A DNA stretch of 64,000 bases from Vulcanimicrobiales bacterium (GTDB lineage: Bacteria > Vulcanimicrobiota > Vulcanimicrobiia > Vulcanimicrobiales > Vulcanimicrobiaceae), in assembly GCA_038231455.1 (NCBI GenBank), contig JBBRLI010000010.1, positions 64,747 through 128,746 of the forward strand. The letters run 5' to 3'. The notes beneath the pieces are model-generated. The model did no database searches, was not told where the DNA came from, and saw nothing but the letters and a program-made list of their open reading frames with translations. Position 1 is the first letter of the stretch; the number at the start of each line of letters is the position of its first letter. The position numbers were made by a program, and so were the translations under genes. Below, one piece after another: positions 12,170 to 38,084 of the stretch.

Positions 12170-12407
12170 ATTTGCGAAACGAGTTCGCTTCAAAAACCGC
12201 TTTCAAGTCCGGCGGCAAGTCATCGATCTCCTGAACCTGCCGAACCTTATAAATCCGTGTTCATCCCAAATCTCACCCGACATGAAAGCGTCGATCGAAC
12301 AACACCAATTTCGACAACCCAACACCAATAGTTCGCCACCACCCCCCCTCTCTACAAAACCCCACCGAACCCAACGCCACCGTTGCGACCGAAAGTCGTG
12401 CCGGAGG

Positions 12408-12576
12408 GGCTGGTGGGGTGCGTTGCCGGTGGGGTCTATGAGCTTTTCGCGGAGCGTGTTGGCCCAGCGTAGGCTGGGACAACACATCAGGATGGCGGGA
12501 GCGAAAAGTCATGAAGCAGGGCTTTTCCAAGGACGGGAAAGCCCGGCGTCCCCACCGGCAACCCGCCCCGCCAGCC
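12408..12576 (+). repeat. Structured dispersed repeat element, copy 1
   Basis: 27-bp terminal stem (12408-12434/12550-12576) enclosing conserved internal hairpins; homologous to 37216-37359. Confidence 0.85.
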
Positions 12577-12651
12577 ACTCACGACACAATCCCCGAACAA
12601 AACGAAGTGACGAACAAACGTTCGATGGGGTAGTTTCTTCTTGGCCCCCAT

Positions 12652-35631: not shown

Positions 35632-36213
35632 TTGGCGCAACCGCGCATCGGCGTACTCGCCGTGCAAGGCGACGTCGACGAACACCGCACGGCGCTGGAG
35701 AAATCTGGCGCCGTTTCCTCGTCCGTCAAGACCGCAGAGCAACTCGCCGTGGTCGACGGGTTGATTATTCCCGGCGGCGAGTCGACGACCGTCATCCGTC
35801 TGCTCGAACGCTTCGGTCTCGACACGGTGATCAAAGAGCGCGTCTCCGGCGGCATGCCGCTGTGGGGAACGTGTATGGGAATGATCGTCGCCGCACACGA
35901 TGTCGCAGGACTCGATCAAAAAACGCTGGACCTGATCGATATCACCGTCCGTCGCAACGCCTTCGGCCGTCAAATCGACAGCGCGGAGATCGACTTACCC
36001 GTGCGGGTGCTCGGCGCTAGGACATTCCCGGCGGTGTTTATTCGCGCGCCTTGGATCGAACGAACCGGGCCTAGCGTCGAGACCCTGGCAAGCGTTGAGG
36101 GGCACGGCGTTTTCGTTCGTGAAAACAACGTGATCGCGAGCTCGTTCCACCCCGAACTCACGCGCGACCGCCGCATGCACGAATACTTCTGCGCCATGGT
36201 CAAGGGCTCGTAA
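35632..36213 (+). CDS. pdxT: PLP synthase glutaminase subunit
   Basis: GVLAVQG, IPGGEST, GTCMG, RNAFGRQ, FHPEL motifs. Confidence 0.96.
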   Translation: MAQPRIGVLAVQGDVDEHRTALEKSGAVSSSVKTAEQLAVVDGLIIPGGESTTVIRLLERFGLDTVIKERVSGGMPLWGTCMGMIVAAHDVAGLDQKTLDLIDITVRRNAFGRQIDSAEIDLPVRVLGARTFPAVFIRAPWIERTGPSVETLASVEGHGVFVRENNVIASSFHPELTRDRRMHEYFCAMVKGS

Positions 36214-36244
36214 CGCGAGAGGCGCGTGATCGAGGCGTTGACGG

Positions 36245-36721
36245 TTACATCTTCATCGCGTGTGCGCCGTGTTCGTCGACTTGGCTTGCAAAATAGCGAT
36301 GAATCGCGGCGACTAGTGCGCGATTCGACGACGTGTATGTGATGGTTGCGCCACTCGGGACTTCGCCATAGGTTACGGAGAGACGTTTGTAGCCTTCGTG
36401 CATGTCCGCGATTCCAGGCATCGTCTTGCCATGAATAGCTCCCGGATCCGTAAAGTCGCCTCTGGCAAACGCGGCCGCTTCTTTTCGAAGATGCGAACGC
36501 ACGAGCATGATTTGTCGCGGATTGCCGTCCTTGACCATGACGGTTTGTTTACCACCTGAGACCGACGAGGAAAACATGTGCATCGTGTCCGCCGCAGAGA
36601 ACGGCATAACGATTGCGCCTTTCTTCTCAACGTCTCGGCGCTTTTCATCAGACGATTGCGCGAAGACGACACCGGTCAGGCAAACGGTCAAAGCGGTGGA
36701 CATGAAGATGAGTTTCGTCAA
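36245..36721 (-). CDS. Secreted His/Met-rich hypothetical protein
   Basis: Signal peptide ending VFA-QS; VMPF...HL...FARGDFTDP..IHG..MPG...H...Q...HG pattern; TTG start inferred. Confidence 0.65.
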   Translation of the reverse strand: MTKLIFMSTALTVCLTGVVFAQSSDEKRRDVEKKGAIVMPFSAADTMHMFSSSVSGGKQTVMVKDGNPRQIMLVRSHLRKEAAAFARGDFTDPGAIHGKTMPGIADMHEGYKRLSVTYGEVPSGATITYTSSNRALVAAIHRYFASQVDEHGAHAMKM

Positions 36722-36884
36722 AACCGAACCCCCCACGAAATGCCCGCACGGAGCGCATAGCGAGCAACCATTCAGTCGGGCGTTCTGCAAGAGATCGGGT
36801 TCACATCTCGGGGAAGGCGGGTACACAAAGAACGTCGCTCCACTTGGGTGCGGTGATCTCTTTTTTATTGAACGCGAGGATAAC

Positions 36885-37009
36885 GTGGCCAAAGCCTCAT
36901 CGAAAACAAAAACCGCCGTCGTCGCGAAAGGTGGAAGCGTTAAGATCGATGCGCCTTTCGCGCGGCGCCGCAGCAGACGCTGACGACCAATCAAGGCGTC
37001 CCGATCACC
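36885..37009 (+). pseudogene. Probable remnant of a catalase (KatE/HPII-type) 5' end
   Basis: GAGGA SD plus GTG-AKASSKTK..., then in a shifted frame LTTNQGVPIT, resembling the catalase LTTNQGVPI.DNQNSL segment; no continuation. Confidence 0.4.
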
Positions 37010-37215
37010 GAATTAGGCAACCACCGCATCTGGACAAGAACGAATCTCGCCGTAACACCAGCCTCAGAACGACTTGCCAAAAAAAATCCGTTACAAAGAG
37101 TCACGAATCGCGCGCAAGCCTTTTCTCTTAAAAAAACAAGCATGCGACAATCCCACCACCCAAGACGGCAAGAAGAAGCAATCCACGAGTTTCTTACATT
37201 GCCGAGATCGCGCCG

Positions 37216-37359
37216 GGGCGAGGTGGGGGTTGGGCGGCGGCGGGGTGTCTGAGCTTTTTGCGGAGCCAGGATGGCGGAAGCAAAGAGTCAGCAAGTAGGC
37301 TTTTCCCAAGGATGGGAAAAGCCGGGCGTCCCCGCCGCCACCCAACCCCCACCTCGCCC
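37216..37359 (+). repeat. Structured dispersed repeat element, copy 2
   Basis: 30-bp terminal stem (29/30 paired) enclosing the same internal hairpins as copy 1. Confidence 0.85.
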
Positions 37360-37556
37360 AGCCACCACCGCCCCGGAGATAAAAAGAAACCAAGTAAAGA
37401 GAGTCGAATCCGTAACCCCATGTCGCATCTTGGGAACATCTCCGGGGTCCGAATACCGTCTCAAACCAGGGGCGGGGCAAAAACGTGCAATTTTACAGAA
37501 AAGCGAGGCATTGCCTCGCTTTTTGCGTCTACGCCGAAGAGCAAAGGGTTGAATTC

Positions 37557-38084
37557 GTGAGCGAAGTCCTCGTTCTCAACTTCACCTACGAAGCGCTGAA
37601 CATCACCAGTTTCCAGCGCGCGGTGAAGTTGATCTTCTCGGGCAAAGCCGAGGTGGTCCACGGCAACGACCGGCGTCTGGTTTCGCCGTCGTTCGAAATG
37701 AAGATGCCCTCGATCATCCGGATGCTCTACTATATCCGGCGGCCGATGCAAAAAGTAGCGCTCACCAAGAAGAACATCTTGCTGCGGGACGACTACACGT
37801 GCCAGTACTGCAACCTGCGCGGCGAGCGGATGATGACGGTGGATCACGTTCATCCCCGGTCAAAAGGCGGACCGTCGACCTGGGAGAATTTAGTCTGCGC
37901 GTGCATGCGGTGTAACAACCGCAAGAATAACCGTACCCCCGAGCATGCGAACATGCCGCTCAAGCGGAAGCCAAAAGCGCCGAAGTATATACCATGGATC
38001 CGGGTGAAGCGGAACACGCTGCCTGGTGAATGGCACAAGTTTCTCTTTCTCTACAATGTCTCGATCGACGAACGGATTGAGTGA
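37557..38084 (+). CDS. HNH endonuclease (McrA/HNH_5-like)
   Basis: VLVLNFTYEAL, RDDYTCQYC, TVDHVHPRSKGG..TWENLVCACMRCNNRK motifs. Confidence 0.92.
   Translation: MSEVLVLNFTYEALNITSFQRAVKLIFSGKAEVVHGNDRRLVSPSFEMKMPSIIRMLYYIRRPMQKVALTKKNILLRDDYTCQYCNLRGERMMTVDHVHPRSKGGPSTWENLVCACMRCNNRKNNRTPEHANMPLKRKPKAPKYIPWIRVKRNTLPGEWHKFLFLYNVSIDERIE

Follow-up and report, generated by a model that had tools for sequence, protein, structure and literature searches.

A dispersed hairpin repeat with a conserved two-hairpin core and freely covarying arms in Vulcanimicrobiota and other bacterial phyla

The DNA considered here, which we call the window, is a stretch of 64,000 nucleotides (nt) from a Vulcanimicrobiales bacterium (assembly GCA_038231455.1, contig JBBRLI010000010.1, positions 64,747 to 128,746), and it holds two copies of a structured, non-coding element in which two hairpins, P2 and P3, form a conserved core that is closed by a long outer stem whose sequence is free. 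This element is a real, new and undescribed family of hairpin repeats, found in several phyla, whose arms covary freely around a two-hairpin core that is under selection and specific in sequence. A covariance model of the 113-position core (R1), used for all model searches, gives exactly two matches within the window, at the two loci whose parts are listed here.

12396..12578, + strand: copy 1, whole element, with the conserved ends TCGTGCC (5') and AGCCAC (3'); core-model match at 12421-12564, 103.3 bits.
12408..12434, + strand: copy 1, G/T-rich 5' arm of the outer stem; partner at 12550-12576, with 24 Watson-Crick pairs, 2 G-U pairs and 1 C-C mismatch in 27.
12438..12512, + strand: copy 1, hairpin P2; stem 12438-12450/12501-12512, internal-loop residues GGA/GGGA, apical CAGGAUG at 12488-12494.
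12456..12487, + strand: copy 1, self-complementary 32-nt insert at the P2 apex, also present in the paralogues C4:164497 and C11:35963.
12519..12544, + strand: copy 1, hairpin P3 with apex CAAGGACG, from fold and sequence.
12545..12576, + strand: copy 1, junction GGCGTCCCC followed by the C/A-rich 3' arm of the outer stem, from fold and sequence.
37208..37365, + strand: copy 2, whole element, with the ends TCGTGCC/AGCCAC; core-model match at 37232-37344, 125.7 bits.
37216..37245, + strand: copy 2, 5' arm of the outer stem; partner at 37330-37359, 29/30 paired with one C-A.
37249..37291, + strand: copy 2, hairpin P2; stem 37249-37261/37280-37291, small apical hairpin GCC-AGGAU-GGC.
37298..37323, + strand: copy 2, hairpin P3 with an 11-bp stem and apex CAAGGAUG, from fold and sequence.
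37324..37359, + strand: copy 2, junction GGGCGTCCCC followed by the 3' arm of the outer stem, from fold and sequence.

Much of this anatomy had been described in an earlier note on the window. Its pair counts for both outer stems (24/27 Watson-Crick plus 2 G-U, and 29/30) were reproduced, its inner stem with compensatory changes is the P2 stem at the positions listed, its core GCGGAGC...CAGGATGGCGG is in both copies, and its second hairpin is P3, followed by GGCGT or GGGCGT. The extra self-complementary segment of copy 1 is likewise present, at 32 rather than 30 nt, and the conserved ends carry both elements slightly past the limits it had given. On the + strand, the minimum folds reach -122.8 kcal/mol for copy 1 and -116.2 kcal/mol for copy 2 (z = -10.4 and -10.6 against 200 dinucleotide shuffles per copy, none of which was as stable).

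BLAST and the covariance model together find ten copies in the genome of the window (G000), on nine contigs and both strands, and the whole-genome search that had been proposed also turned up more in relatives, among them G001 (same genus), the single-contig genome G005 and G156 (genus of G005). The unit is 160-190 bases long, with a near-perfect outer stem of 26-35 bp and a conserved core of ~90 nt. All ten G000 copies share one fold, which runs from short conserved ends through the outer stem (median 32 Watson-Crick pairs, varying in sequence from copy to copy) to P2, the spacer AAGUAG, P3 and the junction GGGCGUCCCC. P2 is a stem with a GGA/GGGA internal loop and a small apical hairpin GCC-AGGAU-GGC, and P3 has the apex CA(A/U)GGAUG on an 11-bp stem whose sequence is free.

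The paired columns of this fold change together, as the earlier note had claimed of a dispersed, covarying family. In the ten-copy alignment, 35 of 55 pairs have changed at both partners, pairing is kept in 93.7% of cells, compared with 41-50% once the 3' partners are shifted by 1-3 columns, and none of 500 shuffles equalled the observed covariation values. An 82-row cross-phylum alignment, fitted to the core model, gives 84.9% of cells paired against 28-40% when slid, and the loop and junction letters CA(N)GGAUG, GGAGC, AGUAG and GGGCGUCCCC are kept from phylum to phylum. In 10/10 copies of G000, a G-rich 5' arm pairs with a C-rich 3' arm, and in G005 the counts are 20/20 for the 5' arm and 19/20 for the 3' arm, despite differing arm sequences; this speaks against equivalence of the two strands. 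The compensatory change is genuine, but by itself, in an inverted repeat of this length, it is no proof of RNA, as DNA-level arm-to-arm correction can also yield the pattern.

As that note had supposed, the element belongs to no known Rfam family, at least at the gathering scores of Rfam 15, which returned no match anywhere in the window. At E values up to 10, positions 12350-12650 matched M23 (13.5 bits, cut-off 41.2) and mir-1260b, both at chance level, and none of the CsrA-binding families of Rfam matched copy 1 even at that setting. In the searchable portion of the literature text, six core strings of 15-17 nt had no published occurrence, and among the papers listed on Eremiobacterota hairpin repeats, on CsrA with miniature inverted repeats and on Planctomycetes intergenic inverted repeats none was relevant. 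We also considered the arms as guides and rejected the idea, as outside the arms themselves the genome has no match to them beyond 14-mers at E above 5.

A comparison of six orthologous pairs from G000 and G001 separates the fate of the core from that of the arms. Core identity is 476/518 (91.9%) and arm identity 408/533 (76.5%), and identity in the genes flanking orthologous copies is 92.8% at first, 97.3% at second and 71.9% at third codon positions (eleven flanking open reading frames (ORFs), two of them in the wrong frame, which blurs the values slightly). The arms thus drift at near the rate of third codon positions and yet remain paired, with changes between orthologues that include double transversions such as C:G to G:C, and the core is held about as well as first positions. 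A core at 92%, set against arms at 77% and third positions at 72%, implies purifying selection on the core. Two of the pairs (C4b and C1) look nearly neutral. Separately, a copy 78 nt past the dnaA stop codon (G000:C4:199775-199932, - strand) looks degenerate in both G000 and G001, with a P3 that lacks GGA and a core that changes at about the rate of its flanks.

That the element behaves as a repeat is close to certain. Copies have been gained, lost, truncated and rearranged, and their number varies between relatives. Most of the 20 copies examined in G005 fall into two subfamilies with arms conserved inside each, which points to a fairly recent expansion, and the same genome has tandem arrays of 5' halves ending at GCGGAGCCA, tandem 3' partial units, and four copies with ~95 extra structured nt at the P2 apex. 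The half-element arrays lie at G005:C1:2947029-2947459, 764067-764369 and 2555388-2555739; three 78-nt 5' halves precede one full copy, two 3' partial units follow another, and the breakpoints are all at or near the P2 apex. Head-to-head pairs, with a - strand copy followed by a + strand copy, are frequent. Two of them, ~110 nt apart across unrelated spacers, are found at G005:C1:2615053/2615324 and 2743151/2743392, and match coordinates alone suggest similar pairs in G015, G017, G133, G149, G156 and L167.

The P2 apex is the site of both the ~95-nt extras of G005 and the 32-nt insert of copy 1. The latter (loop GUAG) occupies the same apical position in the window, at G000:C4:164555-164586 and at G000:C11:36022-36053, with one base difference. 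It is missing from the G001 orthologues of the C4:164497 and C11:35963 copies. Near-identity in three paralogues with differing cores, together with absence from two orthologues, implies that the insert reached copies already in place once the species had split, through site-specific insertion or through conversion of short patches. A hairpin loosely related to it stands alone at G000:C1:286752 on the - strand.

Six of the eight copies in G001 are orthologous in position to G000 copies, and both window loci are represented there only by 3' remnants, so that both window copies are older than the species split and have decayed in G001. No clean empty site was found between G000 and G001, the two extra G001 copies lying at a contig end or facing a different 1.3-kb segment. 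The empty-site check proposed in the earlier note could be carried through for one filled/empty pair and showed no clear target duplication: in G005, a 237-nt segment with one copy lies between convergent stop codons that nearly abut in G156, a weak, single case in which 50 of the 237 nt are not common to other copies. At a second site common to G005 and G156, the cores are alike and the arms come from different subfamilies. In the window itself, 36190-37336 spans ~1.1 kb in G000 and some 50 nt in G001; this segment contains a 249-amino-acid ORF (36245-36994, - strand, no Pfam match) plus most of copy 2, of which G001 retains just the last part of the 3' arm.

The 20 genes that neighbour the ten G000 copies are mutually unrelated (gcvPB, NUDIX, pdxT, HNH, dnaX, recQ, dnaA, thiC, glnA and others). 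In G000 and G005, the element favours sites just 3' of stop codons or gene 3' ends, and it lies between convergent genes in 4/10 copies of G000 and in 8/14 copies of G005 with both neighbours called; three further copies in these genomes lie between divergent genes. The HNH gene, an ORF of 199 amino acids at 37485-38084 on the + strand (PF01844, E 3.9e-15), begins 120 nt 3' of copy 2, and a Pfam scan of the remaining 19 flanking ORFs of G000, four of which have no match at all, shows no further HNH domain.

Matches occur in 25 of 41 relatives, G000 included, at 0 to at least 52 per genome and with many at contig ends (G009, G020 and G022, which count towards this tally, are unpublished). In an evenly drawn sample of 151 genomes of the phylum, 47 carry the element: 44/71 in family f1, 1/1 in f2, 1/9 in f3 and 0/69 in other families. 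A scan of one genome per bacterial or archaeal species with a 22-letter degenerate core motif returned at least 121 stretches. The titles among the matches listed include Eremiobacterota/Vulcanimicrobiota metagenome-assembled genomes (MAGs), many Planctomycetota (Pirellulales, Planctomycetaceae, Kuenenia), a Binatia MAG and unclassified bacteria. Run on 77 of those loci, R1 matched 82 places, mostly over the full model; among the matches listed, full-length ones include MAGs labelled Planctomycetota, Kuenenia and Binatia, and the best-scoring named records (100-111 bits) are Candidatus Eremiobacteraeota, Elarobacter and Velthaea. The planctomycete copies follow the same plan, with outer stems of up to ~60 perfect pairs. 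We took loci titled Spirochaetota, Vicinamibacteria, Acidobacteriaceae and Roseibacillus as chance pattern matches because the R1 match there was absent or partial. Among 2.9 million viral contigs, the pattern matched two places, neither of which is the element.

Known systems share parts of this plan, and the earlier framing of the question as one of a repeat like the repetitive extragenic palindromic (REP) sequences or miniature inverted-repeat transposable elements (MITEs), or else an uncharacterised non-coding RNA, is still the right one. REP sequences, which make up bacterial interspersed mosaic elements (BIMEs), form doublets (REPINs) that are mobilised by RAYT, a Y1 HUH transposase. Like them, the element is short, non-coding, intergenic and hairpin-forming, present in tens of copies that are found mainly past the 3' ends of genes and are retained at orthologous sites, and it has a GTAG tetranucleotide directly before P3 in 8/10 G000 copies. 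In REPINs, however, conservation lies in the arms (the REPs) and the middle is free, which is the reverse of the present arrangement, and a RAYT gene was not found in G000, G001 or G005. MITEs have conserved terminal inverted repeats flanked by target-site duplications. With MITEs that fold into long hairpins, such as Correia/NEMIS of Neisseria and ERIC, the element shares a size of 100-200 bp, non-autonomy, multiple copies, arms that would give a long stem in a transcript, subfamilies and copies at contig ends. It differs from them in arms that share no sequence among the ten G000 copies, though they are conserved within the two G005 subfamilies, in outermost ends (TCGTGCC / AGCCAC) that are not inverted repeats of each other, in the lack of a duplication at the single filled/empty site (n=1), and in the lack of a transposase-bearing parent among the families searched. 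Integron attC sites are recognised by their fold, have variable paired arms and act as single-stranded hairpins. The element resembles them as a fold-recognised family with freely varying paired arms, and differs in having no R''/L''-L'/R' boxes, no cassette arrays and a large conserved-sequence core.

In the account we tentatively prefer, at somewhat less than even odds, the conserved two-hairpin core is a protein-recognition module that works in single-stranded form. The element would be a non-autonomous mobile hairpin repeat whose single-stranded form, probably read-through RNA, offers a pair of GGA loops to a binder that acts as a dimer, CsrA being the leading candidate. The working form would most likely be RNA from transcripts of adjoining genes that read through into the element. 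The long outer stem may insulate the core from its surroundings, and may be cut by RNase III to free it. The stem would display two hairpins with CA(N)GGAUG loops, which match the consensus for dimeric CsrA, and each copy could bind a single CsrA dimer, serving as a decoy or tethering it to the host transcript.

The loops carry this proposal, and the resemblance to CsrA sites that the earlier note had pointed out is a match to the consensus. The repeat of the small RNA CsrB reads CAGGA(U/A/C)G. In G000, the P3 apex fits CA(N)GGA(N)G in 9/10 copies, three of which (C11, C12, C31) read ACA(A/U)GGAUGU, and GGA is present in 10/10 P2 apices; each element has two such loops, ~45 nt apart. A study of CsrA (PMC4347634) gives the consensus from systematic evolution of ligands by exponential enrichment (SELEX) as RUACARGGAUGU, in which ACA and GGA do not vary and GGA lies in a hairpin loop, and counts 18 CsrA sites in CsrB. 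Among 64 copies across phyla, the P3 apex, which the search pattern leaves free, is CAGGATG in 19, CACGATG in 11, CATGGATG in 6 and CAGGGATG in 3, the rest being scattered. The element resembles CsrB, CsrC, RsmX-Z and two-site mRNA leaders in having GGA in short-hairpin loops within CA(N)GGAUG, and in the presence of csrA in the genome. CsrB-type RNAs differ in that they come from one or few gene copies, have their own promoter and terminator, and carry many sites, whereas each unit of the element has just two loops and is closed by a long stem, the units are many and dispersed, and neither promoter nor terminator was found at the window copies.

A csrA gene, outside the window, lies at G000:C58:3233-3385, beside a flagellin gene, and in G005 fliW adjoins csrA. 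At the ribosome-binding site, three G000 flagellin leaders have CAUGGAGG, CAUGGAGA or CACGGAGG, and by this sequence likeness the element loops appear to resemble probable natural CsrA targets. The flagellar cluster at G000:C58:1364-3730 includes csrA, a gene of hook-associated or flagellin-like type, and a flagellin gene that is truncated where the contig ends; its leader has a sigma-28-like promoter, TAAA...GTCGATAT, and CAUGGAGG at the ribosome-binding site. Across the phylum sample, 46 of 47 element carriers have csrA, as do 4/5 carriers from other phyla (Planctomycetaceae, Kuenenia, Pirellulales MAGs and an unclassified bacterium, with four paralogues each).

Several observations weigh against a CsrA-binding RNA. 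With respect to the binder, the Binatia MAG that carries the element yielded no csrA. In family f1, 67/71 genomes are csrA-positive, so that co-occurrence of csrA and element is confounded by phylogeny. G146 (96% complete, 290 contigs) yielded neither csrA nor fliW and yet has at least six element matches, and the four examined have kept the fold in 4/4 and GGA in the P3 loop in 3/4. CGA stands in place of GGA in 11/64 P3 apices across phyla and in many P2 apices of G005, and cross-phylum counts of the P2 apex are constrained by the search pattern. With respect to RNA, the - strand folds as well as the + strand (z = -10.9 for copy 1 and -11.9 for copy 2). The earlier note had read G-U pairs as a sign of selection on the + strand, a reading that is not supported, since the counts of G-U against A-C mismatches are mixed: 76 vs 57 in the core, and in the outer stem 8 vs 15 in G000, 2 vs 8 in G001, 22 vs 6 in G005 and 71 vs 29 elsewhere. 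Copies between tandem genes have no orientation bias (4 co-oriented vs 5 anti-oriented; 3 vs 2 in G000 and 1 vs 3 in G005), and scans of both window copies found no sigma-70-like promoter tied to the element, no intrinsic terminator and no U-tract after the stem. Finally, the orthologue comparison favours intact copies, because the core model found both members of each pair.

The explanations that compete with this one overlap with it in part. The nearest, which we consider a possible but rather unlikely account, is a purely selfish hairpin transposon remnant, in which the core hairpins are single-stranded DNA or duplex recognition sites of a mobilising enzyme acting in trans, the GGA loops have nothing to do with CsrA, and the host gains nothing. 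The swings in copy number among relatives and the patchy occurrence across phyla speak for it, as do the arms conserved within the two G005 subfamilies and the intact-looking copies in G146, where csrA was not found. Half-copies and inserts break at the P2 apex, as expected from a deleted internal gene or a nick there, and the lack of a target duplication at the one filled/empty site is as in IS200/IS605, IS91 and IS110. Selection for mobility, on the other hand, does not predict that the cores of fixed, orthologous copies should be ~3x better conserved than arms and third positions.

Nor did an enzyme emerge that tracks the element among Y1, IS110, TnpB and RVT_1, the families searched (DDE transposases and recombinases were not searched). 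The HUH/RAYT partner suggested earlier did not appear, with no match to Y1_Tnp/RAYT (PF01797) in G000, G001 or G005, the last of which has the most copies found among the relatives; Y1_Tnp occurs in just 6/41 relatives, without tracking the element. IS110 DEDD had no match in G000, G001 or G005, and TnpB none in G001, G005 or G017. A reverse transcriptase partner, also suggested earlier, fared no better: RVT_1 was found in one of the five highest-copy genomes and in none of the other four. In G005, no separated pair of ends flanks a gene, as every half-match adjoins its partner, and a parent element is thus not to be seen there; nor, as noted, was the element found in the viral contigs. As observations on the side, the TnpB zinc-ribbon family gives 24 matches in G015, which is also the one f1 relative with a strong match to Y1_Tnp, and this implies an IS200/IS605-type expansion in that genome, and G000 has two TnpB-like genes (C57:3319-3522 and C8:654-854).

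Less likely again is a structural role at gene ends, of the kind proposed for REP elements, in which the hairpin would act as an orientation-independent transcription block or insulator, or as a stabiliser of 3' ends, and the core would be kept for folding alone. The sites after stop codons and between convergent genes fit such a role, as do the G005 copy that occupies the gap between convergent stops nearly abutting in G156, the equal folding of both strands and the lack of orientation bias. Conservation of loops and junction across phyla is not needed for folding alone, however, and neither the missing U-tract, nor the G-rich 5' and C-rich 3' arms that make the strands non-equivalent, nor the copies in divergent promoter regions are in keeping with it.

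Independently transcribed small-RNA genes that have their own promoters and are merely repeat-like would account for the orthologous G001 copies with their conserved core and for ~30-45 nt of upstream conservation, including the motif AAACGGCTWAGAAGAAG, in a subset of copies, but we regard them as improbable, as neither window copy has a promoter-like or terminator-like site, similarity in G005 ends at the element ends, so that no promoter travels along, and contig-end positions, tandem fragments and copy-number swings are traits of repeats rather than of genes. The motif AAACGGCTWAGAAGAAG lies 15-45 nt upstream of three copies (G000:C3:143855, C9:88976 and C11:35923, with at most two mismatches), with weaker forms before copy 2 and C4:164497, and it is kept between G000 and G001 orthologues. 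We rejected it as an upstream promoter, as it is near only three copies and is not readable as a sigma-70 or sigma-28 site.

Returning to the CsrA-directed mobile hairpin, its boldest form, to which we give a low probability, is a horizontally spreading, self-insulating "portable CsrA trap", that is, a transposable hairpin that folds wherever it is transcribed and offers CsrA a two-site, high-affinity target. If this were true, the copy number of a genome would set the amount of free CsrA, or which of the host transcripts are bound to it, and a regulator-sponge RNA would be known for the first time from a mobile element, one that Eremiobacterota-like bacteria, Planctomycetota and Binatia have in common.

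Whatever its binder, the element is a widespread structured repeat, so far unannotated, in phyla that are almost wholly uncultured. It breaks assemblies, and it is at risk of being misannotated as a small-RNA gene or a terminator. It inverts the usual design of bacterial hairpin repeats, with a conserved centre and free arms, and so provides an unusually clean natural data set on covariation, and its highest-copy genomes are without the usual suspects among mobilising enzymes. With two consensus loops on an insulating stem, the CsrA hypothesis is concrete and cheap to test. Should it prove right, mobile DNA and global regulation after transcription would be connected; should it prove wrong, the loops, conserved as they are, would indicate another hairpin-specific binder or a mobilising enzyme.

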